Positions 7,109 through 61,755 of a DNA stretch of 64,000 bases are shown in pieces (within the stretch, counting starts at the first letter, position 1; each line of letters starts with the position of its first letter). A program made the translations under genes and the position numbers. This DNA comes from an uncultured Acidobacteriota bacterium (GTDB taxonomy: Bacteria > Acidobacteriota > Terriglobia > Terriglobales > Acidobacteriaceae), in the NCBI GenBank assembly GCA_963817925.1, contig CAWFQN010000001.1, positions 11,311 through 75,310 of the forward strand. The letters run 5' to 3'. The notes beneath the pieces were generated by a model, which had not been told where the DNA came from, did no database searches, and saw only the letters and a program-made list of their open reading frames with translations.

Positions 7109-7531
7109 ATGGTCAAAGCTTCCTCGGTAAACGCCACGCCTCGGGCGCCGCGGGTGAAACTCGCAGGCACTGTCCTGTCGCTGGTCCGTTTAGAAAACGG
7201 GCGGCAAACTCGAGGAAGACTGCACCAGCTCTCGATCACGGGCGGACTGCTGCATCTGGAGACGCCTCTGGATGAGGGGATCAAGGTCGAAGTGATCTTC
7301 CACGTGGGCGAAAGCACCGTGCGCAGCAAGGCACGCATGCTGTTTCCGATGTGGGCGACACAAGGCTATCTTCAGCCCTTCGAATTCGACGGCTTGGACG
7401 ACGAGGACCGGTGCAATTTGCAAGTCGATTTGCAACGACTGCTGGATTGCTCGGCCGCAGCGATTGTCTCCACTCCAGCGGAGAATACCGAACTCCCCAC
7501 GGATGCGAATCAGTGGTTGAAGTCCACCTGA
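7109..7531 (+). CDS. PilZ domain protein
   Basis: 140-aa ORF with PRAPRVKL (RxxxR) and QLSITGGLLHL (xxSxxG) about 30 aa apart, followed by a beta-rich segment. Confidence 0.6.
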   Translation: MVKASSVNATPRAPRVKLAGTVLSLVRLENGRQTRGRLHQLSITGGLLHLETPLDEGIKVEVIFHVGESTVRSKARMLFPMWATQGYLQPFEFDGLDDEDRCNLQVDLQRLLDCSAAAIVSTPAENTELPTDANQWLKST

Positions 7532-40583: not shown

Positions 40584-40604
40584 ACGACCTGAAGACGGAC
40601 GTTG

Positions 40605-40641
40605 CAGGGCGGGTGTACGCCACTCGCCCTGTATTTTTTTT
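40605..40641 (+). terminator. intrinsic terminator after the aldehyde dehydrogenase gene
   Basis: Stem CAGGGCGGGTG/CACTCGCCCTG (the outer 7 bp are perfect), followed by a T9 run. Confidence 0.75.
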
Positions 40642-43946: not shown

Positions 43947-44029
43947 CGGTGTTTAATTTACTACGAAATGGAAGGGGATTGCTGAGGGGAGCCGCTTGGT
44001 AGCGCCGCCGTCCCGGCGGCTAAAGCGGC

Positions 44030-45250
44030 CTAGGAAGCGGCGACCTGCACGACCGGCATTTGAAATGGTAGCAGCACCGTAAACGTACTTCCCTTTCCGA
44101 CGACACTGCTGACTTCGATGCGACCATGATGATCTTCGACGATGCGGTGGGCGAGAGAGAGGCCGAGGCCGGTGCCGTCGCCCTTGGTGGTGTAGAAAGG
44201 CCGGAAGATGTTGGGCAGGTTCTGAGGAGCGATGCCGCGGCCGGTGTCACTGACGACCACTCTGGCAAAACCATCACGCTCGCCAATCTCAACATTCACT
44301 GTGCCCGTCTTCTCTACAGCTTGGACGGCGTTCAGGAGCAGATTCAGAAGCACATGGTGAACCTGATCGCTGTCGTGCTCGACTTCGGGGAGATCGGGCG
44401 CCTTCTGCAACTCGATCTTGATTGGTCTTGAGAGCACCTGCTGGCGGGCCAGCATCACCGCGTGTTCTACGGTGGTATTGAGGTTGCTGCGGCGAACCTC
44501 GGGTCGGCGAGGCCGTGCCGTTTCCAGAAGGTCGGTCAGAGTGCGGCTGATGCGCGAGATTTCCAGGCGAACGTCCTTCACGACTGCACGCGCGGGACTG
44601 GTCGCAGGCAGATCGCGGCCGACGATTTCGATCACTCCCGCAATTCCGGCGAGGGGGTTGCGAATCTCGTGGGCTAGGCCTGTGGCCAGTTCGCCGAGCG
44701 TTGCCAGATGTTCGGCGCGAGACATCTGGGTGCGATGCAGGCGCTCGATTTCTTCCCGACTCTCGCGCAACTGTTGCATCATGTGATTGAAGTTGCGGCC
44801 GAGGTCTCCGATTTCGTCGTTGCGCTGAGCGAAGCTAACCGCGACGTTCAGGTTGCCTTCACTCACCTGCGCGATTTTCTCCTGCAATTCGACCATGGGC
44901 CGCTGAATCAAATAGGCAAGGACAACAATTAGAACAGCGCAGATGGCGACTGCTCCCGCGCCCGCGACGATCAGGACCGCGTGGCGTTCGGGGTCGCGCA
45001 GAGACACGGTCGCGAGAATGAAGAGAAGCAGCCCCGACAATAGAACGAGGCCCACCGGCAAGATTGCCTTGAGCTGCCAGTTGACCCGTACGGAACTCAA
45101 TCGGATGTCCTCCACCTGTGAGCGGTCTGCAGACTTGGTGTGCTCGTTGCCGGCGGGCCGACTCGGCGGAGGGCGGACCGGAGCGGTGGTTTGGACTGCC
45201 ACTCCCGGTGGTCCGGTGGCCTGGGTCGCGGATTGAGGGCGGCTAAGCAT
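44030..45250 (-). CDS. sensor histidine kinase (2 TM, HAMP, HisKA, HATPase_c)
   Basis: 406-aa ORF with H-box [14 protein letters not shown]-box [11 protein letters not shown], and G-boxes DTGRGI and GTGLGLS. The periplasmic loop is only about 8 aa. Confidence 0.9.
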
Positions 45251-46646
45251 AAGCGTGCATTCCGGGCAGCAAGTAAGTCACGCCGAAGAAAGTGAACATG
45301 ACCACGGCAAAGCCCAAGATGGCGAAGTACGCAGCGCGCCGGCCACGCCATCCACGGGTGACGCGCATGTGCAGGTAACCAGCGTAAACCAACCAAGTAA
45401 TCGCAGCCCAGGTTTCTTTTGGATCCCAACTCCAATAAGAACCCCAGGTGCGATTGGCCCAGTAGGCGCCCGCTGCGATCATCAGGGTGAGTAATGGAAA
45501 TGCGATCGCGATGGTTTTGTAGGTGATGCGGTCGAGTTCCTCGGCGCTAGGCAGCATGCGCTCCAGATCTTCACGCCGCCACAGAAGTAAGAGGTATAAA
45601 AGTGAAACAAAGATTCCGCCTACCAGGCCCGACAGAATGAACGGGCTGGCTGCCAGGCTGGTTGAGAACAAACCGTCGGCGTCGAGGGAACCGTAGCGGC
45701 CATCGCGCGCTCGGAGCAGGAAGAACATCAGCGCCAGCACCTGCAGCAGGATGCTGATAAACACTGCGCGGTTCGCGATGTCGATGAAGTTTTCATTGCG
45801 GGTCTTACGCCAGATAACATACAGAACCAACGGCGCTGCGACCGCGGCGAGGACTAGCAGCATCAGCCAGCCAAGATCGGGGATGACAACGAAGAGGCGC
45901 ACGCCTTTGGCCAGAAACATCTCGGATTTTTCTTCTGGATTCCAGGCGATCACGCTCAGGCCACCCCATTTCTCGAAACGAGTCAGCACGCCGAGGTATG
46001 TCCCGATGCCAAAAAGGCTGGTTGCTGCCAGGAAGGTCTCGGTCTTCATCTTGTCCTGAATGAGGAACATCATGGCCAGGGCGAAGCTGAGAGCACACGC
46101 TGCGTAAGCCAACATGGCCAGGGTGACGTGGACGTGCAGCCAGGTCGATTGCAACGCGGGCACGAGTGGGTGAACTTCAGTCCGCAGCAACTGCATCAAC
46201 ACAACGCCTACGATGGCGACAGGCATGGTCACGGTTCCAATGACTTTCACGCCGAACTTCTTTTCGGCAATCAGTGTCAGGACAGCGAGCGTCCAGACGA
46301 AACTGAGCAACATTTCGTAGATGCTCGCGAAGGGGGGATGTCCAGCTTCATACCAGCGATGCGCCACGGCCCCCGTGTTCGCGATCAGGCCGGCCCACGT
46401 CGCCAGCGAGGCGAAGCGCACGTAAGAAGGAATTCCGGTGACGCCGAAGCCGAGATAAAGTGTTCCCGCGGCGGAATAGAAAATGAGCGCGGCGTAGAGC
46501 AGGTTGGAGTCGTTGAGCAGATTGCCGCTCTTGACTACGTTCAAAAATGCCATGAACAACAGGAAAGTAACTCCCAACCCCACCATCACGACCAGCGTTG
46601 TGCCGGTTGCGGCTGGTTGTTGTTCGGCTCTTGCGACTCGTGACAT
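45243..46646 (-). CDS. ccsA: cytochrome c biogenesis protein CcsA (system II heme handling)
   Basis: 467-aa polytopic ORF with the WWD-type motif [14 protein letters not shown] and conserved His residues. Confidence 0.9.
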
Positions 46647-46670: not shown

Positions 46671-48119
46671 TCACCGTCCGGCGAACGCGGTAACAGGCGC
46701 GTCGGCGCCTGCCTTCGATGAAACTTTAATTTCTGATTCGATTTGTTCAACCAGCTTGCGAAAACGTTGCTCGAATACGTCTTTGTTCTTGTTTGCGGTT
46801 CCGCCAATCCAAAGCGTCAGTCTGCCGCGGGCATCGCGTACGGGCACGGCCCACACGCGTACATGGATGAAGTAGAAGACCACGGCCAGGCCGAAACCCA
46901 TGACGAGCACGCCCGCCCAAACCGACCACTGCCCGGGTTCGTGCGAAACTTCCAAACCGGTGAAGTAGGCCATCTGTACGTCTTTGCCTTCGAATGTGTA
47001 CGGCGAAGCCGCGTTCTCCTCAAGGCCGGGGATCGGAGGCAGCCAAACGTTTACGGCCTTGCCCGAGTTCCTGGATTCGACCACCAGGTGCGCGGCGGGA
47101 TTTTCAAGGTCGCCGGAGCGGGCATAAATCTGACCGTCGCGCAGCACATAGTCGGGAATGAACTCGGCGAGGCGAACCGTAGTGTCAGAGTCCAGGGGGA
47201 GGGTCTCGTCCAAGCCAATCGTGATGTCCTTAGGGGCGTTACCATCGCGTGCAGTCGCGGTGAGCACAAGTTTGTCGATCTTTCCGGTCTTCCCGTAGCT
47301 CGCCTGATAAAAGCGTACGCCCTGATAAACCAGGGGATCGTTGACGACGATCTGCTTGCTCACGACGACGGTCTGTCCGTTGTCGACGATCGCCAGATCT
47401 GACCACCAGCGTTTGGGAGTGCCGTCGGTATAGTTCTCCTGACCAGCGCCGTCGCAGCGGATGGCAAAACCCAGGTTGCGTTTGCTCCCGTTTTGGGTCC
47501 GCACCTGGCTCGATTGCTGTCCGCGAGTCAGAGTGACGAATGCACGCCAGCCGTAAAGGGCGTCGACGATGCCACCGAGAAAGATGAGAAGCAGACTCGC
47601 ATGCACGATATAAACCGACATTTCCGAAAAGCGATTGCGCTCGCCGAAGAGGGAAAAGCTGTTTTCGCGGACAATCCGCTCGGGGCTGAAACCTGCCTTG
47701 TGAAAGACTCGCTCAGCGACGCTTAACCCGGTTTCTTCGTCACTGATCGGAATCGCGGCCTGCGTCGCCAGCGCCTTGCGGAAGGCATCATCAGGACTCT
47801 TATAAGGACGTGCGTAGTGACGCCATGAGTTCGGGAAGCGCTGTATGGATGCGACGATGATGCTGAGGCTCACCAGCACTAGCAGCGTGACGAACCACCA
47901 GGCATGGAAGACGTCCGTCAAGCCGACTCCATCCAGCAGGCGCAAAACCTGGGGCGAATAGGCTCTCTGCATTTCATCCGCATCGGTCGCAGGACGCTGC
48001 AGAATCACCGTCCCCGCTGCCGAAATGATGACGACGAGAATGAGCAGAACAACGCCAGTCTTGATCGCGCCCAGGGTTTGCCAGGTTTTTCGGGCTGCCG
48101 AGTGAACGGATGTCGCCAT
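46671..48119 (-). CDS. resB: cytochrome c biogenesis protein ResB/CcsB
   Basis: Trimmed to ATG 48119. Starts MATSVHSAARKTWQTLGAIKTGVVLLILVVI. Has a large periplasmic domain and a C-terminal TM, and lies directly upstream of ccsA. Confidence 0.85.
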   Translation of the reverse strand: MATSVHSAARKTWQTLGAIKTGVVLLILVVIISAAGTVILQRPATDADEMQRAYSPQVLRLLDGVGLTDVFHAWWFVTLLVLVSLSIIVASIQRFPNSWRHYARPYKSPDDAFRKALATQAAIPISDEETGLSVAERVFHKAGFSPERIVRENSFSLFGERNRFSEMSVYIVHASLLLIFLGGIVDALYGWRAFVTLTRGQQSSQVRTQNGSKRNLGFAIRCDGAGQENYTDGTPKRWWSDLAIVDNGQTVVVSKQIVVNDPLVYQGVRFYQASYGKTGKIDKLVLTATARDGNAPKDITIGLDETLPLDSDTTVRLAEFIPDYVLRDGQIYARSGDLENPAAHLVVESRNSGKAVNVWLPPIPGLEENAASPYTFEGKDVQMAYFTGLEVSHEPGQWSVWAGVLVMGFGLAVVFYFIHVRVWAVPVRDARGRLTLWIGGTANKNKDVFEQRFRKLVEQIESEIKVSSKAGADAPVTAFAGR

Positions 48120-48586
48120 ATCTTCCTCTTCCCCATTTGGCGAAAGCACGTTTTGCGCCATTGCTGAAAATTCGGCGAAGTTGCTGAAATTTCTGGCAAT
48201 GAGTCAGATCGGTTGGAAAACAGCGAGCTCGGTTTGAGCCATATCACACAGCAGATTGGACTTCCGTTGGAATTTGGCGCACTCTCCTGGTAACCGGTGT
48301 AGAAACATTTCAGCAATCTGATTTACCGGCCGATAAGCAACACACGGCGTGGTGACTTGGGTCATTTGGTCCATTTCACTGTGGGAGAATCCCCATTGTG
48401 ATGAACCTTGCAACAGTCTCGATTTCTTACAGATGCGAGTTCAGTTCCCAACTGATTTTGTTGCAATCTGTTAGAAGACTTGCTCCGAAGCTTGCTTCAT
48501 TGAAGAAATAAGGCGAGATGCGTGCACTGGCGAATGAAGAGACGATAGTGGGTGTGACGTTGGAATTATTCAAATCGAGTCCGAGT

Positions 48587-50011
48587 ATGACTCACAGAGT
48601 AAGAGCGCTGGCCTGTTTCATCGTGGTGCTCATCCTGACTGGCCGCGTCTACGCTGCGAAGCATCCTGTCCCGCTTGACCCGAAGGCGGACACTTCCACC
48701 TGCCTGGCCTGCCATGAGGACAAGACCAAAGGCAAGTCGATCCATTCGGCGATGGCTATGGGCTGCACCAGTTGCCATGAGATCCGGGTAAATAAAGACA
48801 TCACTCGGGTAAAACTGATCACGACCACGCCCCTTGCCCTTTGTCTGACCTGCCACGCCGACAAAAATGCCGCCGACATAAAAGGTACGGTCCATCCTCC
48901 GGCAGTTCGAGACTGCGTGAAGTGCCACGATCCGCACTCCTCGGACTATAAGAATCAGTTGTTGAAGCCGACCTCGGGGGATCAGAAAGAAAACCTCTGC
49001 CTCAGCTGCCATACGACCGGGCTGAATGTGCCCGAAAAAGGCAGCCGCCATGCCGCCCTCGACATGGGCTGCGACACATGCCACGTTACGCACAAAACGG
49101 GGGAGATCGGCAAGGCTGAATTCGATTTTCATCTCACCAAGGCGCCGCCCGCCCTCTGCATAGATTGCCATGACGTCAAGGGTGCGGACCTGCAGAAGGC
49201 GCACCAGAATCAGCCGTTCGAAACGTCCAATTGCGTGAGCTGTCACGATCCCCACGCGTCCGCAGCTCCCAAGCTGATGGCAAAATTCACCCATCCGCCA
49301 TTTGCCGATAAGCAGTGCGAAGTCTGCCACGCCCCGGCCAAGAATGGAAAAGTGGTGCTGACGCAGGCCGATGCCAAGGCGCTGTGCGTGACCTGCCATG
49401 ACGATAAAGCCAAGTTAATCGAGACCGCCAAAGTTCAGCATCCAGGAGCGGCGGGCGACTGCACTGATTGCCACAGCCCACACGCCAGCAGGCAGCCCGG
49501 ACTTCCCAAAACGAACACAGTGGATATCTGCCTGGGCTGTCACAGCGACATCGCGGACCAAGCCAAGAAACCGGTCCACCACCAGCCGGCGTTCCGTCAG
49601 GGTTGTGCTACCTGTCATCAGCCACATGGCGGCGACAACGATCATTTGCTGCGCGCCCAGACGCCGAACGCACTTTGCCTGGAATGCCATGGACCGGAGA
49701 GGCAACCGAAGAAGCTGGAGGGTCAGCCTGTGATCACCATCTTCAACGGAAGTGTGAAACTTCCCGACGACTATTTCGCAAAAAACAAGGTCGTGGTTCT
49801 ACCGCTGAAATTCGGTATGGGACACCCTGTGGCGGGACATCCCGTCTCTGACTTGCTGGATCCAGCAGACCCGACCAAAGTGAAAACACCGATGAGCTGC
49901 CTGACCTGCCACCAGCCGCACTCCTCGGCTCAGCCCGATTTGCTGGTGAAGGATCAGGCCAACAACATGGCATTTTGCTCTACGTGCCACAAGGATTTGA
50001 AAACGCGATAG
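48587..50011 (+). CDS. 16-heme c-type cytochrome (c3/c7-like repeats), secreted
   Basis: Trimmed to ATG 48587. Has a signal peptide, and I count 16 CxxCH motifs in about 450 mature residues, with recurring CxxCHDPH and CLTCH units. Confidence 0.9.
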   Translation: MTHRVRALACFIVVLILTGRVYAAKHPVPLDPKADTSTCLACHEDKTKGKSIHSAMAMGCTSCHEIRVNKDITRVKLITTTPLALCLTCHADKNAADIKGTVHPPAVRDCVKCHDPHSSDYKNQLLKPTSGDQKENLCLSCHTTGLNVPEKGSRHAALDMGCDTCHVTHKTGEIGKAEFDFHLTKAPPALCIDCHDVKGADLQKAHQNQPFETSNCVSCHDPHASAAPKLMAKFTHPPFADKQCEVCHAPAKNGKVVLTQADAKALCVTCHDDKAKLIETAKVQHPGAAGDCTDCHSPHASRQPGLPKTNTVDICLGCHSDIADQAKKPVHHQPAFRQGCATCHQPHGGDNDHLLRAQTPNALCLECHGPERQPKKLEGQPVITIFNGSVKLPDDYFAKNKVVVLPLKFGMGHPVAGHPVSDLLDPADPTKVKTPMSCLTCHQPHSSAQPDLLVKDQANNMAFCSTCHKDLKTR

Positions 50012-50032: not shown

Positions 50033-51289
50033 ATGTTTTCCATTCGACCAAACCCGACGCGCAGGGGCCAGCGGTTTCTGGCTTTGCTTGTTCTTTTGGG
50101 CCTGGGGCTGGGATCGCCGGTCTCCGTGTTCGGAGGAAAGAAAAAGCCGGCCGACACTGCAGCTCCGAAGGCGCCGCCAGTGATCGACTATTCCAATATC
50201 GTTTGGCCGAATCCGCCAGCAATCGCCCGCATCAAGTACCAGGCGTTTTATGCGGCCGAAAAAATCTCCCAGGTAGACAAGCCCAACACCAAGAAGCAAA
50301 CCTGGATGGACCGGCTCGCGGGCACACAACCCTCCACCGACAATACCAAAGTTCTCTTCCAACTCGCAGAGCCTTATGGCATGGCGGTGGATTCAAAGGG
50401 CAACCTCTATGTCGCCGACCAGAAGGTGGGCGCTATCTTCATCTTCAACACGGAAACCCGGGACGTTGAGCTCATCAAGAATAAAACCCACGGGCACTTC
50501 GTTCGCATCATCGGTTTGGCGATGGACGACAATGACCGCCTGTTTGTCTCCGACCCTGGTTTGCGTCATGTGCTGGTTTTCAACGCCAAACACCAACCCG
50601 AGGACGTAATCACTGATGGATTGGTCGAACCGGGTGGGCTCGCCATTGATACCGAGAACCGGCTTCTTTATGTTGCTGACGTCGACCAGGATCAGGTTCT
50701 GGTTTACGACGCTGACACTCTGAAGCTGAAGCGGCGAATCGGCACCGGCGGGCACAAACACGAACTTACCACGCCCGGAGATTTCGCCCGGCCGGGGGGA
50801 TTGGCGGTCGACCGGGACGGCAATCTCTACGTGGCCGACTCCCTCAACAACCGTATCGAGATCTTCGATGGCGACGGCAAATTCATCAGTACGTTTGGCA
50901 AAGCCGGCGACGGCCCAGGATATTTCTCGCGGCCCAAAGGGGTTGCCATTGACAGTGATGACCATATCTGGGTGGTCGACGGGATGCAGGATCGAGTGCA
51001 GGTCTTCAATCAAGACGCCCAGTTGCTCATTAGCTTCGGCGGCCATGGACTTCTTCCCGGCATGTTCCAAGGGGTGGTCGGCATCACGATCGACAAGGCA
51101 AACCGCGTTTTCACCTCGGAGATCTTCCCCGGACGAGTCCAGCAATTCCGCTACGTGACCGACTCCGAGGCCGATCAGTTGCGCCAGCAGAAAGACGCAT
51201 CGCGGGAAAAGAAGGCTGGCGTATCCAACAACGAAGTGGTTCCGATAGCGGATCCTGCGATTCAGGCACAGAGTCCGCAAAGCAAATAG
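50033..51289 (+). CDS. NHL-repeat beta-propeller protein 1, secreted
   Basis: 418-aa ORF with AGGAG RBS and a signal peptide. Carries six NHL-type units (P.G.AVD..GNLYVAD..N.RI..F). Confidence 0.85.
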   Translation: MFSIRPNPTRRGQRFLALLVLLGLGLGSPVSVFGGKKKPADTAAPKAPPVIDYSNIVWPNPPAIARIKYQAFYAAEKISQVDKPNTKKQTWMDRLAGTQPSTDNTKVLFQLAEPYGMAVDSKGNLYVADQKVGAIFIFNTETRDVELIKNKTHGHFVRIIGLAMDDNDRLFVSDPGLRHVLVFNAKHQPEDVITDGLVEPGGLAIDTENRLLYVADVDQDQVLVYDADTLKLKRRIGTGGHKHELTTPGDFARPGGLAVDRDGNLYVADSLNNRIEIFDGDGKFISTFGKAGDGPGYFSRPKGVAIDSDDHIWVVDGMQDRVQVFNQDAQLLISFGGHGLLPGMFQGVVGITIDKANRVFTSEIFPGRVQQFRYVTDSEADQLRQQKDASREKKAGVSNNEVVPIADPAIQAQSPQSK

Positions 51290-51717
51290 AGTCACCTCGG
51301 CGAGACGATTCTCGACGCAAATCAGCTCTCGAGGGTGTCGCTGTCGCACATGATGGCCGACCGGGCCTTCTGCAATTTCCTGCTGTTGCGTTTCTCAACA
51401 CAATCGCTTCAAGTGCAGGTTCCAGCATTGCGTTGATTCAAATCCGATTGCGGAATTTAACCAACAGTAACGAAGGCATTGGTTCTTTTCCCCCAGCAGT
51501 CCTCTTTCCCAGTTTGGGACGGAATGGGATGATATTGCACTTAACATCATTGTAATCAAATACGTACATCGAATCTCCGCAACACTGGCGACGTCTCTGG
51601 CTTCGGTTGGACAGTTGCATAACCCAGAGCAGGGGGCGGTTGCAAGGAGTTGCAGCCCGGGCCTAAGCCTCCAAGGGTTTTAGAGTTTTGCAATTAAACG
51701 AGGAGGTTTTTACTTAT

Positions 51718-52635
51718 ATGAAAAAAGTAATGTTACTTGCAATCTTCGTTCTTGCCGTTACGGGATTGATGATGGCCCAAAACTGGTCGTCAACGGTCGA
51801 CGTGCTCGGCGCGCATAACAATCAGGGCCGCGGCTGCGCGGGCTGCCATGCTCCGCATAGCGGTTCGTTTGGCTCCGGTCACGGCGGCGCAGCAGACGCT
51901 GGCAGCTATGCATTATGGGGCCAGGATGCCAGCCCACTGTATGGCCAAACCATTAAGTTCGGCGACAATGGGCAATACGTTGAAGTTCTGCCCACCAGCA
52001 TCACCAGCGGCAGCACTGAAGTCGGCGGCATTTTGCTCTGCCTGAGCTGCCACGACGGCAACCTCACCGCCTCCAACATGATGACCAATCAATCGTATGA
52101 ACAAAAGATTGGCCTCTTGACCAACACCACGTACGGCAGCAAGCCGATTCCAACCCTGCTTGGCAATGATGGCACGACCGCCGGTAATTACACCAACGAC
52201 CATCCGGTGGGCGTCAATGCCAACATCAGCACGACTCAGCCTGGCTTGGTCTGGGCGGCCGGAAAATTCACCGTCACTCCAGGAAGCCCGTATGCGCAAT
52301 TCGTAGCGAATTACGGTTGGCCGGCTCTGGCGCCTGGAAAGTGGTCCACCCCATACGGCGTCAACAGCGCTGGTCTTCCCTATGTGGCCTGCACCACTTG
52401 CCACAACCAACATGTCATGACCGTTTACACGTCTTCTGCCAATAGCCAGATCCGGAATGACGGCGGCGGCAAGTTCTATGCCACCTACTTCTTCGTGAAC
52501 GGCCCCTACAACCCGAACCTTCAGACCTACGCCAGCACTTCGGCACCGTCGACGACACAGTTCTGCCGTCAATGCCACTTTGGCGAAGCGAATGAGGCTA
52601 ACAACACCAACACCATCACGACGCAATTCCAGTAA
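51718..52635 (+). CDS. secreted tetraheme c-type cytochrome
   Basis: ATG 51718 follows GAGGAGG. Signal peptide MKKVMLLAIFVLAVTGLMMAQ. Four CxxCH motifs: CAGCH, CLSCH, CTTCH, CRQCH. Confidence 0.9.
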   Translation: MKKVMLLAIFVLAVTGLMMAQNWSSTVDVLGAHNNQGRGCAGCHAPHSGSFGSGHGGAADAGSYALWGQDASPLYGQTIKFGDNGQYVEVLPTSITSGSTEVGGILLCLSCHDGNLTASNMMTNQSYEQKIGLLTNTTYGSKPIPTLLGNDGTTAGNYTNDHPVGVNANISTTQPGLVWAAGKFTVTPGSPYAQFVANYGWPALAPGKWSTPYGVNSAGLPYVACTTCHNQHVMTVYTSSANSQIRNDGGGKFYATYFFVNGPYNPNLQTYASTSAPSTTQFCRQCHFGEANEANNTNTITTQFQ

Positions 52636-52652
52636 AGACGGTTTGAACCCAA

Positions 52653-52681
52653 GGGGAGAGACTTATCTCTCCCCTTTTTTC
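52653..52681 (+). terminator. strong intrinsic terminator after the tetraheme gene
   Basis: GGGGAGAGA-CTTA-TCTCTCCCC forms a perfect 9-bp stem, followed by TTTTTT. Confidence 0.85.
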
Positions 52682-52703: not shown

Positions 52704-53732
52704 ATGAAATACAAACTCTCAATCTGGATCCTGCTAGTGGCGGCGACCGCCGCAGCTCAAGTTGCCTCTCATACTCCAACCAGCGTGGGGACGCCGTCCG
52801 CGACTGCTTCTCCCGTATCACCTTTGCAGGTGAGCGATAAGCCGGTGGCGCGGGTCAATGGGGCGGTGCTGACGGACCGCGATCTACTGCGTGAGATGTT
52901 TGCCATCTTTCCGTATGCCAAGCAGCACAACGGATTTCCCAAAGCGCAGGAAGCCTCCATCCGCCAGGGTGCGCTCGAGATGATCATTTTCGAGGAACTC
53001 GTATATCAGGAAGCTGGCCGACGGAAGTTGACAGTTTCCGCTGCGAGCCTGAACCGCGCCGAGGCTGATTTTCGCAAGCAGTTCAACAGTCCCGATGAAT
53101 ACGAACAATACATGCAGACAGAGATGCACGGTTCCCGCCAGGTGTTGCGCCAGCAGATCCAGCGTTCGCTCCTGATCGAACAAGTGTTGAAAACTGAGGT
53201 GGAAGACAAAGCCACTGTATCGCCGACCGAGGTCAAAGCCTATTACGATAAGAACACAGCACGCTTCGAGCAACCGGAGTCATTTAGCATACAAAGCATT
53301 TCCATTCTTCCTCCCCGAAATGGCAACGTTACCCCGGAGATAGTGAACGAAAACCGTAAACGCGCAGAAGACGGGCTGCGCCAAGCCAAGGCGACGAAGA
53401 GCTACGAGGAATTCGGCTTGCTGGCGGAAAAAATCTCCCAGGACGATTTTCGCGTCAACATGGGCGACCACAAGGCCGTAGGGCGCGATAAATTGCCACC
53501 CCAGATCGTGAAGGCGGCGCTGACGATGCAGGCGGGACAGGTCAGCGGATTGATCCAGATTGAAAACGCGTTCACAATTTTCCGGCTGAATGCACACAAT
53601 CCACCCGAAAAGCAGAGCTTGGCGGACGTCAAGGCTAACCTGCAAACGGAATTGCAAAAGCGCAAGTATGAACAGTTGCGTTCGAATCTTGCAAAGAGCC
53701 TTCGCGCCAAGGCCAAGATCGAAATCGTGTAA
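52704..53732 (+). CDS. SurA/PrsA-like periplasmic chaperone with parvulin-type peptidyl-prolyl isomerase domain
   Basis: 342-aa ORF with a signal peptide, a SurA_N-like region (VARVNGAVLTDRDLLRE) and a PpiC-like region (FGLLAEKISQD...GQVSGLIQIENAFTIFRL). Confidence 0.75.
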   Translation: MKYKLSIWILLVAATAAAQVASHTPTSVGTPSATASPVSPLQVSDKPVARVNGAVLTDRDLLREMFAIFPYAKQHNGFPKAQEASIRQGALEMIIFEELVYQEAGRRKLTVSAASLNRAEADFRKQFNSPDEYEQYMQTEMHGSRQVLRQQIQRSLLIEQVLKTEVEDKATVSPTEVKAYYDKNTARFEQPESFSIQSISILPPRNGNVTPEIVNENRKRAEDGLRQAKATKSYEEFGLLAEKISQDDFRVNMGDHKAVGRDKLPPQIVKAALTMQAGQVSGLIQIENAFTIFRLNAHNPPEKQSLADVKANLQTELQKRKYEQLRSNLAKSLRAKAKIEIV

Positions 53733-54007: not shown

Positions 54008-54068
54008 CTTCAGTAACAGCATCTGGCCGGACTAGTGAGGGAGTTCAGGGGTGGAAGGAACTGGCACA

Positions 54069-55901
54069 ATGACGAGGTTGGCGGCGGGCATTGTTGGGCT
54101 GCTCCTTGTGATCGTAATACCGCTGGCCCGGGCCCAAGTGCAGATTGGAGACAACCTCCAGATGAAGGCCGGCGGACTGCTCACGGTGGGGTACCAGGGA
54201 GACTACGGAGACGATATCCAATCGAGCCACGGACTAAACTTCGGACTTAACGGCAACGTCTCCGGCTCTTATTACAATCCTAGCTTCCTCTCCTTCGACT
54301 TCACCCCCTATTACAATCAGTCACAGGCCAATTCCAACTTCCAATCGTTGACAGGCGCCAGCGGATTTACAGGGACAGCCAATCTTTTTACCGGAAGCCA
54401 TTTCCCAGGATCGGTCAGCTATCGCGACGACTACAACAGCACCGGCACTTTCGGACTTCCGGGTCAACCCGACTTCACCACTCACGGCCACGGGCAGGGC
54501 TTCGGCATTGGATGGAGCGCACTGATTCCGGGCTTGCCCACTCTGTCAACCAGCTACTCACAGGGCAGCGGATCCGGCACTGTGTACGGAACCAATCAGG
54601 AGACTGGTTCTGATACGAAGCTGTTCAATGTGAGGTCTACGTACGCGATAGAGGGTTTCCACCTGAACGGTTTCTACGATCACAACACTCTTCACTCCAC
54701 GTACCCGGAATTCCTGGCCGGTGAGCAGGAATCGGTATCGGACACCACTGGCCACGATTTTGGTTTTGGCGCGAACCGCAACTTGCCGATCAACGGCTCC
54801 TTCTATGTCAACTACACCCGCTCAGAAGCAACTACCGATTTTCAGGGACAAGCGGACAACACGACCAACTATACGACCAGCACCGAGACCTCCGGCGCTA
54901 CCATCCGCCCTCTCCAAAAGCTGAGCCTGTTTGCCAACGAGAGCTACACCGACAATCTGTCGGGCTATTTTAACCAGAACCTCATCAACACCGGAACGGT
55001 GCAGACACCCTTCAATTTCGGATCAGGCTCAAGATCATTCACGGTGGGTGGAGGCGCTACTTATCAGTTCACCAATTACCTGTCCACGCAAGCACAGGCC
55101 ACTTATTACGATCAATACTATTTTGACAAGAGTTACACCGGGACTTATATCACCGGCACGGTGAATTATGCACGCAGGCTCTTCGACATGTTTACCTTCT
55201 CCGCGGGCGTAGTGGAGGAGTCCAATGGCCAGGGCAGCAACTCGGTGGGTTTCATCGGCAATATGAATTATTTTCGTAGGATCAAAGGTTGGGAGACTTC
55301 AGGTTCATTCAGTTATGCCCAAAACGTGCAGTCAATCTTAGTCACCTATACATCCTCTTACTACAACTACAGTGCCCGGTTGCATCGCCGCTTCGGACAT
55401 GGCTTGGCGTGGATCGCGAGCTTTAACGGCAGCCACAGTGGTCTGACAAATCAACCGGGCAGCAATAATGACAGCAAGAGCTATTCCACTTCCTTCAGCA
55501 TGCGCCGGTTCACCTTAACCGGTAACTATACGCAGGCAAGTGGAAACTCGATTCTCACAAATGCCGGGCTGGTGCCGCTTCCACCGACGCCTGGGGTGCC
55601 GGCGAGCGATCTCATCATTTACAACGGGGACAGCTATGGCGGCGGGCTTTCCGCGACGCCTCTGCGCCGGCTCACGCTTTCGGCAACCTACAGCCGCGCT
55701 CTCAGTAACACGCTCGGCAACACGACGAATTCGCACAATAATACGGAGATCTTCAATGCTCAGATGCAATACCATCTCAGGAGAATTGGCCTGCTAGGCG
55801 GCTTTACCAGGTTCAGTCAGAGCATCAGTGCGGTCGGCATTCCTCCGGGAACCGCGAATTCGTATTTCATTGGAGTGTCCAGATGGTTCGATTTCTTCTG
55901 A
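54069..55901 (+). CDS. outer-membrane beta-barrel protein (porin-like, about 20+ strands)
   Basis: Signal peptide MTRLAAGIVGLLLVIVIPLARAQ. Rich in Gly, Ser, Thr, Asn and Tyr, with alternating hydrophobic dyads throughout. C-terminus ...YFIGVSRWFDFF ends in an aromatic residue. Confidence 0.75.
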   Translation: MTRLAAGIVGLLLVIVIPLARAQVQIGDNLQMKAGGLLTVGYQGDYGDDIQSSHGLNFGLNGNVSGSYYNPSFLSFDFTPYYNQSQANSNFQSLTGASGFTGTANLFTGSHFPGSVSYRDDYNSTGTFGLPGQPDFTTHGHGQGFGIGWSALIPGLPTLSTSYSQGSGSGTVYGTNQETGSDTKLFNVRSTYAIEGFHLNGFYDHNTLHSTYPEFLAGEQESVSDTTGHDFGFGANRNLPINGSFYVNYTRSEATTDFQGQADNTTNYTTSTETSGATIRPLQKLSLFANESYTDNLSGYFNQNLINTGTVQTPFNFGSGSRSFTVGGGATYQFTNYLSTQAQATYYDQYYFDKSYTGTYITGTVNYARRLFDMFTFSAGVVEESNGQGSNSVGFIGNMNYFRRIKGWETSGSFSYAQNVQSILVTYTSSYYNYSARLHRRFGHGLAWIASFNGSHSGLTNQPGSNNDSKSYSTSFSMRRFTLTGNYTQASGNSILTNAGLVPLPPTPGVPASDLIIYNGDSYGGGLSATPLRRLTLSATYSRALSNTLGNTTNSHNNTEIFNAQMQYHLRRIGLLGGFTRFSQSISAVGIPPGTANSYFIGVSRWFDFF

Positions 55902-56989
55902 GAGAACGATTCGCGGGACGGTTGCAGTGGGCTTTTACCGTTGCCGGTCTTGTCGTATTGCTGGGCATGCCGGCGGTCGCCGGCAAACCCTCCAAAACGA
56001 CTGCTGTCCAGCCCGCTCCCCCGGATTTGCTGCTGGACGGCGGACGGAAACTGACGTTTGAACGCAGCTTCAGTCTGGAGCGCGAAGTGAAGCCGAAGCG
56101 GAGCTTCTGGACTCGTGTGGTCGACGTCATCGCCGGTGAACCAGACTTCCACTATCTGGTCAGTCCCTACAGCATCGCAACCGATTCGCACGGACGAGTC
56201 ATCGTAACCGACCCTGGAGCCGACGGAATTCACATCTTCGATTTCACCGAAAAGAAATACAAGTTTCTCTCCCGCAAGGACAGCGGCAAGGATCCGATGC
56301 TGTCGCCGCAATGCGTTGCGGTGGACGCGCAAGACAATATTTATGTGACCGATTCGCAGGCGGGAAAGATTTTCGTTTTCGACGTCAAGGGGAAGTTCCG
56401 GCATGTGATCGGCGGCCTGAAAGGCGGAGAAGGATATTTCAAACGTCCCACTGGAATCGCGGTCGATTCTGCGGCCCAGCGCATTTACATCACGGACACC
56501 TTGCGTAACAAGATTTTTGTAATGGATTTGCAAGGCAGCGTGCTGGCGACGATTGGGAAAACGGGTACGGGCGAAGGCGAATTTAATTATCCGACGGAGT
56601 TGCGGCTGAGTGGTCCTGAGTTGTTCGTAGTCGATGCCATGAATTTTCGGGTGCAAGTCCTTGACCGATCCGGCAGCTTTCACTATGCCATCGGGAAGAT
56701 CGGAGACTCTAAGGGATCGATGTTCCGACCCAAGGGGATCAGCTTCGATTCCGAAGGACATCTTTATGTCGTAGACGGCCTCTGGGGCATCGTGCAGGTA
56801 TTTGACCGGGAAGGCCGGCTTTTGTATTACTTCGGGCAGCGTGGAAGCGGACTGGGAGATTTCCAATTGCCGACCGGACTGCAAATTGACAACAACGATC
56901 GAATCTATGTCGTGGATTCCTTCAATCGCCGCATCGAGGTATTTCACTACTACGCGACCGCAAGAGCCGTTGACGGGGGCAAGCAATGA
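55883..56989 (+). CDS. NHL-repeat beta-propeller protein 2, secreted
   Basis: 368-aa ORF whose start overlaps the OMP 3' end by 19 nt. Has a signal peptide and six NHL units (GIAVDSAAQRIYITDTLRNKIFVMD etc.). Confidence 0.85.
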   Translation: MVRFLLRERFAGRLQWAFTVAGLVVLLGMPAVAGKPSKTTAVQPAPPDLLLDGGRKLTFERSFSLEREVKPKRSFWTRVVDVIAGEPDFHYLVSPYSIATDSHGRVIVTDPGADGIHIFDFTEKKYKFLSRKDSGKDPMLSPQCVAVDAQDNIYVTDSQAGKIFVFDVKGKFRHVIGGLKGGEGYFKRPTGIAVDSAAQRIYITDTLRNKIFVMDLQGSVLATIGKTGTGEGEFNYPTELRLSGPELFVVDAMNFRVQVLDRSGSFHYAIGKIGDSKGSMFRPKGISFDSEGHLYVVDGLWGIVQVFDREGRLLYYFGQRGSGLGDFQLPTGLQIDNNDRIYVVDSFNRRIEVFHYYATARAVDGGKQ

Positions 56990-58899
56990 GGTGGATCTTG
57001 GCCTCCGCTTGTGTAGTGGTTCTGGCTCAAAGCTTTGCCAATGCGCAAGTCATCACCGGAGATGTGATGGGCATGCATAACCTGTCACCCCCCAGCGGAG
57101 CCTCGGTGTATTCGCAGGGAAGCCTCGGCTGCACCTTCTGCCACGCTCCGCATAGCGGACTGGGAGGAGCATCTCCGTTATGGAACCAGACATTGTCGAA
57201 GTCGACCTATACTCCGTATTCCAGTTCAACCTACGTCGAGCGAGGCAACACCCAGCCCACCCTCGGAGTAACCAGCAGTCTGTGCCTGAGTTGCCACGAC
57301 GGCACGGTCGCGGTAGGACAGTCGGCAGCTTATGGCACCCTCCCTATGACGGGCTCGATGAACAGCATCGACTCCTTTGGGACGAACCTTGGTGGCACCC
57401 ATCCCTTCAGCCTGCTTTTGCCGATGAAGGACGCCTCCAATCTGGTGGCTTCATTAGTTTCGCAGGGCAAGACGGCCGATCCAACCGGGGCCGTGAAATT
57501 GATTAAAGGGAATATCGAGTGCACCAGTTGTCACAACCCGCACGTGCAGGGCACGGATAAGGTCGCGCAGGATTTCCTGGTCCGCGACAGTTCCAGCGGC
57601 CAGATGTGTCTCGCCTGCCACGATCCCAACCGGATCATTCCCGGACAGCCGAACCCGCTTGTGGGCTGGACGAACGGTATACACCAAACGGCAACCAACC
57701 AGCCAGCAGCCAATGCGCATGTGGGTTCTTACAGCACGGTTGCCCTCAATGCTTGCTCTTCCTGCCACATGGAGCATGACGCAATGGCGCCAGCACGGCT
57801 GCTTCGGCCGGCCAACCCGCCAGCACCCGGCACCGACAATGCGACCCAGGATTGCATGACTTGTCACAGTGGCGGAACGCTGCTTGCGCCAGCGGCTCCG
57901 AATGTCATGGCTGAGATCGCTAAGATAAGCCATCCTCTGCCTGCGGGAACCAATTTTCACGACGCAGCCGAAACCGCTGTGCTCAACAACAATCGCCACG
58001 CCACCTGTGTGGATTGTCACAGCGCTCACGGATCCAATCAGGTGGTCACATTTGCTGCCCCTCCCGCGATTCGCCCCTCGCAGGCGAACCTGACCGGCAT
58101 CAGCGCGACGGACGGAGTGACGGTTCTGCTTCCGGCCCTGAACCAGTATGAGAACTGCCTGCGCTGTCACGGTACGAGCGTAGGAAAACAAAGATTGATG
58201 ATTTACGGATATGCGCCGACGAGAATAGTTTCAGCGCCGGATCCCCTGAACGTGATTCCGGAATTCAGCGCGGCCGCAACCTCGAGCCATCCCGTCACGC
58301 ACGACAGTCTGAGCCCGTTGCCGCAGCCTAGCTTGCTCACGAACATGCTGAATCAGAATGGCACGGCAGGGCGCTTGATGGGTGTCCGGATTTTCTGCAG
58401 CGATTGCCACAACAGCGACGACAATCGCGAGTTCGGTGGAATCGGCCCGAACGGTCCTCACGGTTCGGTCTACTCGCATATCCTCGAGCACAACTATCAA
58501 TTCAGCCAAGCCACCGTGCCCGGCGGACAAGTCACGAACCTGTTTCCCAATCCAGACGTAAGCCTCAATGGGCCTTATGGCATGTGCGCCAAATGTCATG
58601 ATCTGAACAAGGTTGAGGCTAACACTAGCTTTACGAAGCACAGCAACCACGTGTCTCAGGATGGCTTCTCCTGTTCCGTGTGCCATACTGCGCACGGCAT
58701 GGGTTCGATAGCTCCTGGGGTTTCGGGCGAACGCCTGGTGAATTTTGACATTAACGTGGTGGGGCAAAACAACGGCGCTCCAATCTCCTACAACCGCGGC
58801 AGCAATACCTGCACTTTGACCTGCCACCAGACCGCCCATAATGCCGATGGCTCAATCTCCAGCGCCCAAGGTTCCGGCCAACACGCGAGAAAAAAATAA
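56986..58899 (+). CDS. secreted multiheme c-type cytochrome (11 CxxCH + 1 CxxxCH)
   Basis: 637-aa ORF whose start overlaps the NHL stop as ATGA. Has a signal peptide. I count 11 CxxCH motifs plus a C-terminal CTLTCH. Confidence 0.9.
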   Translation: MRWILASACVVVLAQSFANAQVITGDVMGMHNLSPPSGASVYSQGSLGCTFCHAPHSGLGGASPLWNQTLSKSTYTPYSSSTYVERGNTQPTLGVTSSLCLSCHDGTVAVGQSAAYGTLPMTGSMNSIDSFGTNLGGTHPFSLLLPMKDASNLVASLVSQGKTADPTGAVKLIKGNIECTSCHNPHVQGTDKVAQDFLVRDSSSGQMCLACHDPNRIIPGQPNPLVGWTNGIHQTATNQPAANAHVGSYSTVALNACSSCHMEHDAMAPARLLRPANPPAPGTDNATQDCMTCHSGGTLLAPAAPNVMAEIAKISHPLPAGTNFHDAAETAVLNNNRHATCVDCHSAHGSNQVVTFAAPPAIRPSQANLTGISATDGVTVLLPALNQYENCLRCHGTSVGKQRLMIYGYAPTRIVSAPDPLNVIPEFSAAATSSHPVTHDSLSPLPQPSLLTNMLNQNGTAGRLMGVRIFCSDCHNSDDNREFGGIGPNGPHGSVYSHILEHNYQFSQATVPGGQVTNLFPNPDVSLNGPYGMCAKCHDLNKVEANTSFTKHSNHVSQDGFSCSVCHTAHGMGSIAPGVSGERLVNFDINVVGQNNGAPISYNRGSNTCTLTCHQTAHNADGSISSAQGSGQHARKK

Positions 58900-59133
58900 C
58901 TCCTCACCCCAGGGGCAAAACGCGCCCAGAGTGAGGATAAAGACCCGATTCGGGCCAGCCTTCTGACGTCAGCCGTCAGACTCGCTCCCTCACAAGTCGC
59001 TGAAATCAGGACCACAATCGGCCAGGCCGACCCAGGGTGTAGTTTTGGCAATGCCGATGCATTCCTTCTCAGGGGTGTTTGCGAAGCTTGCCCACAGGTG
59101 GGCCTCGGCAACGCGCAAAACGGGAGCTTAAGG

Positions 59134-59838
59134 ATGGCAGACGAACCGAATTTAGCCGTGACATCGAAGCTGAGCTGGCAGCCCCGGCAGTTATTAGTAA
59201 TGTGCGCTGTGTGCCTCGTATTGGGGTTTCTGGCGGGCTACTTTCTGAGAGGCTCGGCCTCCGCGCCGGCGCCGGCACTTTCGGCTGCAGCGCAAGAGAC
59301 TGGCGCCTCGTCTCACGCGACGAGCCAAGATACGGGACCAACGACGCAGCAGATGCCAAAAGAAGCACCCACTTTGGACGACCTGAAGCGCATGGCAGAC
59401 AAGAAGGCTGCGCCGGTCCTGGAGAAATTAAAGTCTGACCCAAAGAATCCGCAGCTGTGGAATCAGGTCGGACTGATCTACAAAAGTGCTCACCAATTCA
59501 AAGAGGCCGCAGGATACTTCGAGAAATCTCTGCAGTACGATCCGAAAGACCTGGGGGTGCGAGCCGACTACGCTTCTTGCTTGTATTATTCCGGCGACGT
59601 GGATGGAGCCCTCGCACAACTCAACCAATCCCTGGCTTACGATCCGAAGCACGCAGGCACGCTGATGAATATCGGCATCATCAAATGGAGAGGCAAGAAT
59701 GATGTCGATGGTGCCGTGGCTGCCTGGGAAAAACTGCTGCAATACCATCCCGATTTCCCCCAGAAAGACTTGGTCCAGCAGATGCTCACGCAAGCCAAAC
59801 AGGGCGTGAAGGTGGCTAACCAGGGACAAAAGGGATAA
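59134..59838 (+). CDS. TM-anchored TPR protein (paralogue of 36095..36763)
   Basis: I prefer ATG 59134 (MADEPNL..), which aligns with the paralogue. Shares CLVLGFLAGYFLRGSAS and the C-terminal GIIKWRGKNDVDGAVAAWEKLLQYHPDFPQK. Confidence 0.7.
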   Translation: MADEPNLAVTSKLSWQPRQLLVMCAVCLVLGFLAGYFLRGSASAPAPALSAAAQETGASSHATSQDTGPTTQQMPKEAPTLDDLKRMADKKAAPVLEKLKSDPKNPQLWNQVGLIYKSAHQFKEAAGYFEKSLQYDPKDLGVRADYASCLYYSGDVDGALAQLNQSLAYDPKHAGTLMNIGIIKWRGKNDVDGAVAAWEKLLQYHPDFPQKDLVQQMLTQAKQGVKVANQGQKG

Positions 59839-60042: not shown

Positions 60043-61755
60043 GTGGGAACTCGACCATCTGATGCTATGGCAGAACAGGTCACAGTGCTTGCTTCTACAG
60101 AAACCGAGCATGTTGCTTCCGGCTGGCGTGTTTGGGCGCTGCGCATTGCGATCACCCTCATTACTCCATTAGTGCTACTCGGGCTGGTGGAAGCAGCTTT
60201 GCGGATTTGCGGAGTCGGATTTCCCACCGATGTCACCGTTCCCTGCACCGTCCAGGGCCAACCTGCCTCTTGCTATAACTTGTTCTTCACCGCTCCGTTT
60301 TTCCCGCCAGGCATGATCAAGACGCCACAAATGTATGCCATTCCGACGGAAAAACCGCCCGGAACTTTTCGCATTATCGTCCTCGGAGAATCCGCAGCCA
60401 TGGGAGATCCCGAGCCGGCATTCGGATTCAGCCGATACCTGGACGTGATGCTAAGCGAACGCTATCCCTCCATGAAATTTGAGATTGTGAATACTGGCAG
60501 CGTCGCCATCAACTCGCATGTCGTGTTGCCGATCGCCAAAGGGCTGGCAAACTATCGTCCGGACGTATTCATTATTTACTCAGGCAACAATGAGGTCGTC
60601 GGACCGTATGGTCCAGGTACGGCGCTTACTTCTGCCGGGATGAGCCTTCCGATCATTCGTAGCAGTATTTTCTATCGTTCGACCCGCATTGGACAGCTCC
60701 TCACCAAGGTGGGCACGCCGAAAAAAGACTGGGGCGGGATGGCAATGTTTCTCGACAAGCAGGTTCGCGCCAGTGCGCCGCTCATGAAGTATGCTTACGC
60801 GAACTTCGCATCCAACCTGCGCGATACTATCGCCGTGGCTCGCAACGCCGGGGCTAGAGTAATCGTGTCCACCGTGGCCACGAATCTGAAGGACTGTGCG
60901 CCGTTCGGGTCTTTGCACCGTGAGGGTTTGGGACCAGATGCTTTGCGCTCCTGGTCCACCCTGGTTCAACAGGGAGCTGAGCAGGAAAATGCTGGCTCCT
61001 ACGCGGAGGCATTGAAATCGTATCGCGCGGCAGCGAACATAGACGACGAATATGCCGAACTCGCGTTCCGGATCGCCCGTTGCCTGGAGGCTCTCGGAGA
61101 CTACAACGCCGCGAGGGAATATTTTCTTCGTGCCCGTGAACTCGACACGTTGCGTTTTCGTGCTGATAGCAAAATCAATGACGTCAACCGCTCGGTAGCA
61201 TCTTCATCCGCGGCAGTCGAATTGGTAGACGCAGATGAGATCTTTGCCGAAGAAAGTCCAAACGGAATCATTGGTAGTGACCTCGTGTATGAGCACGTGC
61301 ACCTGGCTCCGAGTGGCAATTACTTGCTGGCTCGCGCCATGTTCCTTCAGATCGCGAAGCAGTTGCCTTCTGACGCAGGGCATCCACCTCAGGCTGAAGA
61401 CGTACCCACGCAAGCCGAATGCGAGCGTTTGTTGGCATTCACCAAATTTGATCGTTCCCGAGTAATCGCGGAGATGTTGCGACGGCTGCGAGAGCCTCCT
61501 TTCACGAATCAACTGAACCATTCCGATCAGATTTTGCGGTTGATGATGAAGGCAGACAATTCGGACGAAAGCCCCGATGACACAGTTGCGCAGTATCAAT
61601 GGGCGCTCGCGAGACGGCCAAACGACCGCATCTTACACTTCAATTACGGAGTCTTTCTTAACCAGTACGACCCCGCGGCTGCGGCTGCGCAGTTCGGCGT
61701 CGCGCGCCCGTGCGACGGATTCCCCCTGGTCACGCCTGACGGCACCGTGCATTAA
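60043..61755 (+). CDS. membrane-anchored SGNH/GDSL-like hydrolase with C-terminal TPR-like region
   Basis: 570-aa ORF with an alternative ATG at 60067. One TM, then FRIIVLGESAAMG and IIYSGNNEV blocks, and TPR-like AEALKSYRAAANIDDEYAELAFRIARCLEALGDYNAA. Confidence 0.6.
   Translation: MGTRPSDAMAEQVTVLASTETEHVASGWRVWALRIAITLITPLVLLGLVEAALRICGVGFPTDVTVPCTVQGQPASCYNLFFTAPFFPPGMIKTPQMYAIPTEKPPGTFRIIVLGESAAMGDPEPAFGFSRYLDVMLSERYPSMKFEIVNTGSVAINSHVVLPIAKGLANYRPDVFIIYSGNNEVVGPYGPGTALTSAGMSLPIIRSSIFYRSTRIGQLLTKVGTPKKDWGGMAMFLDKQVRASAPLMKYAYANFASNLRDTIAVARNAGARVIVSTVATNLKDCAPFGSLHREGLGPDALRSWSTLVQQGAEQENAGSYAEALKSYRAAANIDDEYAELAFRIARCLEALGDYNAAREYFLRARELDTLRFRADSKINDVNRSVASSSAAVELVDADEIFAEESPNGIIGSDLVYEHVHLAPSGNYLLARAMFLQIAKQLPSDAGHPPQAEDVPTQAECERLLAFTKFDRSRVIAEMLRRLREPPFTNQLNHSDQILRLMMKADNSDESPDDTVAQYQWALARRPNDRILHFNYGVFLNQYDPAAAAAQFGVARPCDGFPLVTPDGTVH

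Follow-up and report, generated by a model that had tools for sequence, protein, structure and literature searches.

A divergent OmcE-family tetraheme cytochrome, candidate nanowire subunit, in a conserved gene cluster of Terriglobia

We analyzed a 64,000-nucleotide stretch of DNA (the window) from an uncultured Acidobacteriota bacterium of soil or peat (assembly GCA_963817925.1, contig CAWFQN010000001.1, positions 11,311 to 75,310) and focused on the gene at positions 51718 to 52635 of its forward strand, which has an ATG start and encodes a c-type cytochrome of 305 aa with four hemes (here called the tetraheme). The protein is very probably a divergent OmcE-family cytochrome in an OmcE-type cluster, and profile comparisons establish that its first ~130 mature residues are homologous to OmcE, which makes up electrically conductive filaments in Geobacter. 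We lean, with no great confidence, toward placing it in a Terriglobia-wide divergent branch of OmcE whose members would be subunits of an "insulated" extracellular nanowire.

The tetraheme begins with a Sec signal peptide (residues 1 to 20, MKKVMLLAIFVLAVTGLMMA|Q) that lacks a lipobox, and the mature protein has 285 residues, assuming cleavage after A20. The CxxCH motifs lie at residues 40, 108, 225, and 283 (nucleotides 51835-51849, 52039-52053, 52390-52404, and 52564-52578), giving 71 residues per heme, and four distal histidines (H33, H47, H162, and H232) are conserved. T, S, N, and G make up 41% of the mature chain and K, R, D, and E just 7.7%; the original prediction, which described four CxxCH motifs in about 283 mature residues rich in Thr, Ser, Asn, and Gly, therefore agrees with what we found. 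Searches of Pfam and NCBIfam returned only generic heme-motif models (Paired_CXXCH_1, c3, and c7) near or below their cutoffs, and the CctA model, whose cutoff is 180 bits, reached 21 bits and aligned with residues 1 to 49, where the signal peptide and the first heme motif lie. Close relatives number in the thousands, each annotated as "hypothetical," and come from Terriglobales, Ca. Sulfotelmatobacter, and Acidoferrum metagenome-assembled genomes (MAGs).

The relation to OmcE emerged only with a profile built from 50%-identity representatives. Single-sequence phmmer and a shallow profile of sequences 80 to 100% identical gave only spurious low-complexity matches in the PDB (e.g., ASXL1); the shallow profile reached no known family because its sequences were too alike. 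At an E value of ≤1e-3, the library of 50%-identity representatives gave 395 matches; of the best 150, which were listed, most full-length proteins have ~280 to 360 aa. In the family alignment of 37 full-length representatives that are 31 to 59% identical to the tetraheme, the four CxxCH motifs, H33, H47, H162, H232, D113, G114, P163, F195, N292, and E293 are invariant or nearly so, and exactly eight histidines are conserved for the four hemes. The profile of this alignment retrieved 9YUQ (chain 9yuq_N, E value of 6.1e-11) and 7TFS (7tfs_A, 2.4e-3) from the PDB, the other hits being nonsignificant. 9YUQ is the OmcE nanowire bundle of D. soudanensis WTL (bioRxiv 10.1101/2025.10.22.684050), an assignment confirmed by the reconstructed chain, which finds the D. 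soudanensis protein with 100% identity; Fiorito et al. (bioRxiv 10.64898/2026.05.27.727921) identify 7TFS as the OmcE filament of G. sulfurreducens. Direct comparison of the family alignment with one of 34 OmcE-family sequences in hhalign gave a probability of 99.4% (E value of 7e-22), and after removal of the signal peptides it gave 98.8% (4.6e-17) across 106 columns that run from heme 1 to NDHPVG. The match is reciprocal, scored as in a search of 1e6 sequences: the OmcE hidden Markov model (HMM) finds the tetraheme with an E value of 2e-9, and the HMM of the tetraheme family finds canonical OmcE homologues with values of 5e-8 and 4e-5. The alignment with OmcE that had been suggested as a check thus revealed homology at the profile level.

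The invariant columns of a joint alignment of 115 sequences include C40, C43, H44, P46, H47, L66, W67, C108, C111, H112, D113, D161, H162, P163, C225, C228, H229, H232, C283, and H287, so that the four heme motifs and three of the distal histidines (H47, H162, and H232) line up with those of OmcE. H33, invariant in the tetraheme family, maps to the histidine of OmcE "KHDLS" by way of a 12-heme paralogue encoded in the same cluster, "GAHN" of the tetraheme corresponding to "GMHNLS" of the paralogue and to "KHDLS" of OmcE. OmcE and the tetraheme share the order CxxCHxPH, LW, CLSCHDG, NDHP(V/I)G, CxxCHxxH, and C-terminal CxxCH; four distal histidines are conserved in both, and the structure predicted for the tetraheme at low confidence is, like that of OmcE, mostly coil. 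They differ in size, since OmcE (GSU0618) has ~200 mature residues versus ~285 in the tetraheme, and in phylum: OmcE homologues have been reported in Thermodesulfobacteriota, Pseudomonadota, Aquificota, Campylobacterota, and Nitrospirota (bioRxiv 10.1101/2025.10.22.684050), and Acidobacteriota lies outside these five.

The paralogue is a 637-aa cytochrome (56986 to 58899, forward strand) with 11 CxxCH motifs and 1 CxxxCH motif. BLASTP aligns residues 6 to 253 of the tetraheme with its residues 4 to 207 (E value of 3e-10, 25% identity), a span that covers three heme motifs and the histidine of "DHPVG"/"THPFS"; the original prediction had seen paralogy in the first two heme motifs, and in fact it extends to three. 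Residues ~1 to 213 of the 12-heme protein (nucleotides 56986 to 57624) form a complete OmcE-like module, which is followed by eight more hemes, and phmmer matches this N terminus to 7TFS with an E value of 6e-12, including all 4 hemes and all 4 distal histidines ("MHNLS" at "KHDLS").

The gene neighborhood resembles that of known OmcE loci. As published, the minimal OmcE cluster combines OmcE and a large beta-barrel with two beta-propellers and two multiheme cytochromes, and resB/ccsB lie close by (bioRxiv 10.1101/2025.10.22.684050); the content of the window cluster matches it. The cluster is opened by a multiheme cytochrome with 16 CxxCH motifs and DmsE/MtrA-like parts (48518 to 50011), followed on the same strand by an NHL-repeat beta-propeller directly 5' of the tetraheme gene (50033 to 51289), the tetraheme gene, a SurA-like periplasmic peptidyl-prolyl isomerase (PPIase)/chaperone (52704 to 53732), a 616-aa Y/T/S/G-rich protein presumed to be a large outer membrane beta-barrel (54051 to 55901), a second NHL beta-propeller (NHL2; 55883 to 56989), and the 12-heme cytochrome. 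CcsA (45243 to 46646) and ResB (46671 to 48161) of System II cytochrome c maturation are encoded divergently on the reverse strand. The 616-aa protein is taken as a barrel because it has no Pfam match, carries a signal peptide, and ends in ...RWFDFF; composition and the C-terminal Phe are the whole basis of this presumed assignment. In one canonical OmcE locus (L082), the order is ResB, CcsA, 19-heme cytochrome, NHL, NHL, OmcE paralogue, 8-heme cytochrome, NHL, omcE homologue, 785-aa barrel, and glycosyltransferases; in another (L083), it is NHL, omcE homologue, and 756-aa barrel. Given this recurrent order of NHL, omcE, and barrel, the tetraheme occupies the position of omcE. The propellers upstream of the tetraheme gene and of a canonical omcE homologue are 31% identical over 326 residues (E value of 1e-44) and have an N-terminal WPxPP motif in common. 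The canonical barrels are longer (~760 to 785 aa, versus ~600 aa here), and the canonical loci L082 and L083 lack a PPIase, whereas here the SurA-like protein stands between subunit and barrel. L082 also encodes two full-length OmcE paralogues, of 221 aa (6679 to 7344) and 208 aa (10001 to 10627), which the OmcE HMM finds with E values of 4e-63 and 6e-86; the presence of a pair of OmcE-like modules may thus be a general trait of such clusters. The 16 CxxCH motifs of the first cytochrome exceed the decaheme count of DmsE/MtrA, and since a signal-like segment starts close to residue 24, the true start codon may lie downstream of the annotated one.

The arrangement is conserved. When one genome per GTDB species was scanned, at least 570 species genomes carried a relative, and the best 80, from which locus counts were taken, are Terriglobia MAGs from peat, bog, fen, and soil, save one labeled Verrucomicrobiia. 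According to tblastn, seven genes (16-heme cytochrome, NHL, tetraheme, SurA-like PPIase, ~600-aa barrel, NHL, and 12-heme cytochrome) keep the same order and orientation in ~70 of the 80, and the exceptions are mostly contig ends. The tetraheme is mostly the best conserved of these products; in one related locus (L050), for instance, it is 75% identical, versus 48 to 72% for the others. A more distant clade (Terracidiphilus/Acidobacteriaceae; ~292 aa, ~50% identity), in which a sigma-54 activator adjoins the locus, keeps the tetraheme, the PPIase, a 593-aa barrel (...RWFNFF), a 343-aa protein, and a multiheme cytochrome. Some Terriglobia carry a second tetraheme-family copy, such as a 284-aa paralogue on the reverse strand at the other end of the cluster (16894 to 17748 of locus L001), and the family copies in loci L070, L072, and L081 have few or no other cluster genes within 8 kb.

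Signals around the gene suggest that it is transcribed separately and probably at a high level. The Shine-Dalgarno sequence is GAGGAGG (51700 to 51706), and of 80 related loci, 78 have a conserved GGAGG ahead of the start codon. Because the upstream propeller reading frame ends at 51289, the gene is preceded by a 428-nt intergenic leader/promoter region (51290 to 51717) with conserved blocks (e.g., 51447 to 51495 and 51633 to 51672), and the median spacer in 73 related loci is 442 nt. Within it lies a putative sigma-54-type -24/-12-like element, GGTTGGACAGTTGCA (51605 to 51619; GG-N8-TTGCA, with GG-N10-GC spacing), 113 nt upstream of the ATG; 58 of 81 loci have the pattern GG-N8-TTGC[AT] at a distance of 100 to 136 nt on the 5' side of the ATG, compared with ~1 expected from shuffled sequence, and genes for a sigma-54-dependent response regulator (42903 to 43946) and a histidine kinase (44030 to 45250) are close by on the reverse strand (together 42903 to 45250). 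Downstream, an intrinsic terminator (52651 to 52681) consists of the hairpin GGGGAGAGA-CTTA-TCTCTCCCC and T6, with 9 perfect pairs in the stem, or 11 with the flanking A-T pairs. A GGGGAGAG...CTCTCCCC hairpin with a T-run follows ~35 to 45 nt past the stop codon in 69 of 80 related loci, where loops vary and the median ΔG is -16.2 kcal/mol; the canonical omcE homologue of L082 has its own terminator too (12-bp stem, T7). The original prediction had located the ribosome-binding site (RBS) and the 428-nt spacer correctly and had argued from them for separate, probably high expression, a view that the recurrence of these signals supports. Its terminator, a 9-bp stem plus T6, is likewise present, but it is not the strongest in the window: a hairpin scan of both strands gave -15.8 kcal/mol for it and -22.8 kcal/mol for the strongest one, a hairpin ending near 40633 (within ~40603 to 40641, forward strand; 13-bp stem, T8), 3' of an aldehyde dehydrogenase gene (39036 to 40583). 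In filament operons, the usual design is a major subunit made in excess, with assembly genes expressed by read-through, and the signals around the tetraheme gene would fit this design. The leader block ...GGCCTAAGCCTCC (51633 to 51672) is predicted to pair with the GGAGG RBS (51700 to 51708) and is a candidate anti-Shine-Dalgarno sequence; the fold of 51625 to 51720 is not more stable than shuffles (z of -1.0), and the 5' leader has no match in Rfam, so no riboswitch or RNA element is claimed.

The homology, the cluster position, the conserved ligand set, and the conserved over-expression signals are together read most economically as those of a tetraheme that polymerizes into an extracellular filament, and we favor this reading, if by no wide measure. 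Filaments of OmcE and OmcS have a heme whose ligand histidine comes from the adjacent subunit (PMC9473688). The original prediction of a candidate filament subunit gains from the OmcE homology and the cluster position, while its OmcS link is lost; polymerization and extracellular location are what we infer from sequence. Several observations weigh against this reading. Eight conserved histidines for four hemes suit a polymer and a monomer equally well. Single-sequence phmmer against the PDB did not find OmcE, and the C-terminal halves match only at the heme-3 motif CxxCHxxH (E value of 1.6e-4, probability of 50%). From H162 to the C terminus, the tetraheme has 143 residues and OmcE 75; a conserved 18-residue tail follows heme 4 (H287) in the tetraheme, whereas OmcE ends 2 to 3 residues past it, and the distance between the N-terminal histidine and heme 1 is ~10 to 11 residues shorter than in OmcE. 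The 285 mature residues thus do not align over their full length with the ~200 of OmcE, and given the longer C-terminal half and the tail, the C-terminal interface may differ from that of OmcE. Judged by sequence, the closer OmcE relative within the window is the N-terminal module of the 12-heme protein rather than the tetraheme, as the OmcE HMM finds that module with full-length coverage and an E value of 6e-22, versus 2e-9. In the neighborhood, BLASTP detected no similarity between the 616-aa barrel and the 785-aa barrel of an OmcE cluster, and the NHL proteins here lack the lipobox cysteine of those in the canonical cluster. AlphaFold2 models of the tetraheme were unusable, with a pLDDT of 38.5 from a 25-sequence multiple-sequence alignment (MSA) and 51.0 once sequences of the second Terriglobia clade and the OmcE family had been brought in (115-sequence MSA); a Foldseek search of the PDB with the low-pLDDT model gave no match, which is uninformative rather than negative.

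The strongest competitor is suggested by two published systems. EET1 ("porin-NHL-CytC") is a conserved cluster of peat Terriglobales that is transcribed in deep peat (Fiorito et al. 2026, bioRxiv 10.64898/2026.05.27.727921); it is defined as a porin, an NHL protein, and a 13-heme OmcE-like cytochrome that matches 7TFS with a TM score of 0.70, and in a further point against a tetraheme filament, the 13-heme protein, not a tetraheme, was proposed as the long-range element (bioRxiv 10.64898/2026.05.27.727921). Its three-gene core is comparable, by gene content and taxa, to the barrel (54051), NHL2 (55883), and 12-heme (56986) genes, and the window locus appears to be of the same type, in the same taxa. 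NHL2 overlaps the barrel gene by 19 nt (55883 to 55901) and the 12-heme gene by 4 nt (56986 to 56989, ATGA), which suggests translational coupling of the published trio. A term search of the main text and supplement of the EET1 preprint found no mention of a tetraheme or PPIase, and nanowires only in the sentence on the 7TFS match. The second system, Uet (undecaheme electron transfer), was proposed for electron uptake in the gammaproteobacterium Ca. Tenderia electrophaga (bioRxiv 10.1101/2022.05.06.490989). Its order is like that of the window (UetA tetraheme, UetB PPIase, UetC barrel ... UetH/I NHL, UetJ 11-heme), with ccsAB, TPR (NrfG), and VWA (Bat) proteins near, although three c7-type triheme proteins and a cupredoxin, all absent from the window cluster, lie between its barrel and NHL genes; UetA is likened to the tetraheme by gene order alone. 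In the window, the corresponding genes encode two TPR proteins (59098 to 59838 and 60043 to 61755, forward strand), present in some related loci only, and downstream of these a BatA/B-like VWA-domain protein (62230 to 63198, reverse strand). UetA is only predicted to be extracellular, and its authors speculated that one Uet cytochrome might polymerize (bioRxiv 10.1101/2022.05.06.490989).

By analogy, the tetraheme could be a nonpolymerizing, stoichiometric or accessory part of a porin-cytochrome conduit, either as a surface cytochrome docked on the barrel or the 12-heme protein or as a relay from the periplasmic 16-heme cytochrome to the outer parts, with the long reach provided by the 12/13-heme OmcE-like protein. 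A DmsE/MtrA-like multiheme cytochrome, a barrel, and a large extracellular-type cytochrome together follow an Mtr-like logic; the definition of EET1, the equivalence with uetA-uetB-uetC...uetHI-uetJ-nrfG, and the closer OmcE kinship of the 12-heme N terminus speak for the same arrangement. We nevertheless regard it as possible but rather doubtful: the promoter-like element, strong RBS, and terminator argue for a large stoichiometric excess over the barrel, which would be unusual for a 1:1 part, the tetraheme sits in the position of omcE and keeps the full OmcE ligand set, and the C-terminal 8-heme extension would be expected to hinder head-to-tail polymerization of the OmcE module in the 12-heme protein.

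A soluble periplasmic tetraheme carrier, functionally akin to STC/CctA or PpcA, that takes up electrons at the inner membrane, hands them to the conduit, and is highly expressed for that role is considerably less probable. It would agree with a Sec signal peptide that lacks a lipobox, with the weak subthreshold matches to CctA (21 bits against 180) and the c3/c7 models, and with high expression, which is likewise typical of such carriers. STC and PpcA, however, are compact, with 20 to 25 residues per heme as opposed to 71 in the tetraheme, whose specific homology is to OmcE and not to STC or c7, whose Thr/Ser/Asn/Gly-rich composition is uncharged, and whose gene is tightly coupled with barrel, propeller, and PPIase genes.

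The OmcS N terminus quoted in the original prediction matches 6EF8 residue for residue, and a short ligand pattern is indeed shared: H-x6-CxxCH-xx-H has identical spacing in OmcS (F1-H2...C9xxC12H13xxH16) and in the tetraheme (H33...C40xxC43H44xxH47), and the CLxCH and CxxCHxxH motifs are as in OmcS. Homology to OmcS did not follow: 6EF8 was absent at an E value of ≤10 from three PDB searches (single sequence and two profiles), and pairwise BLASTP with OmcS gave only out-of-register fragments. All four hemes of OmcE, ligands included, can be superimposed on hemes 1 to 4 of OmcS (PMC9473688); the pattern is common to OmcS and OmcE generally, and the shared CxxCH motifs and distal histidines explain why the N terminus had looked OmcS-like. 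OmcS has six hemes in 407 residues and no detectable sequence similarity to the tetraheme, although heme density is alike (~68 to 71 residues per heme). An OmcS-family protein that has lost two hemes is therefore extremely improbable; membership in that family was rejected because BLASTP with the OmcS N terminus gave no in-register alignment and the hemes number four, not six. The OmcS companion operon, osc, is reported to encode folding and secretion factors (cited in PMC13194489). Archaeal filament cytochromes had also been suggested for comparison in the original prediction; the archaeal tetraheme filaments PcECN (8E5F) and AvECN (8E5G) were not matched at an E value of ≤10 in the PDB searches with the single sequence and both profiles.

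If the tetraheme is a filament subunit, its own sigma-54-dependent promoter would drive the gene, and most transcripts would end at the terminator, so that the subunit would greatly outnumber the assembly proteins encoded downstream, whose expression would depend on read-through. Sec would export the apoprotein, ResB/CcsA would attach the hemes, and the propellers and PPIase would hold the product assembly competent until it is handed to, or through, the barrel. Polymerization would then proceed head to tail outside the cell, one distal histidine ligating the heme of a neighbor as in OmcE and OmcS, and the resulting continuous chain of bis-His hemes would carry electrons over micrometers to particulate acceptors. 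One end of the filament may serve as a docking site for the OmcE module of the 12-heme protein, which would wire that end to the envelope conduit. In its fullest form this becomes a two-part nanowire, a tetraheme homopolymer seeded, anchored, or capped by the 12-heme protein, whose OmcE module could join the filament end by a His swap while its eight extra hemes reach the barrel conduit or the substrate; we offer this elaboration tentatively, as an unlikely one. Petersen et al. found no base/tip adaptor in OmcE operons. If the two-part arrangement is true, such an adaptor would have its first candidate in the 12-heme protein, and nanowires would extend to bacteria that dominate peat and acidic soils.

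Few bacteria are as abundant in peat and acidic soils as Terriglobia, and electron transfer to particulate organic matter has been invoked to account for CO2 production without methane in these settings. To our knowledge, solved structures of cytochrome nanowires come only from Desulfuromonadia (Geobacter and Desulfuromonas) and two archaea. Terriglobia may build OmcE-like nanowires as well: an apparently over-expressed OmcE-type subunit that is widespread (at least 570 species genomes) and strongly conserved, together with its full assembly cluster, is a concrete candidate for this electron-transfer hypothesis. The divergent branch, with its longer C-terminal half, PPIase, and fused OmcE module, would also offer a handle on how such filaments are secreted, started, and anchored.

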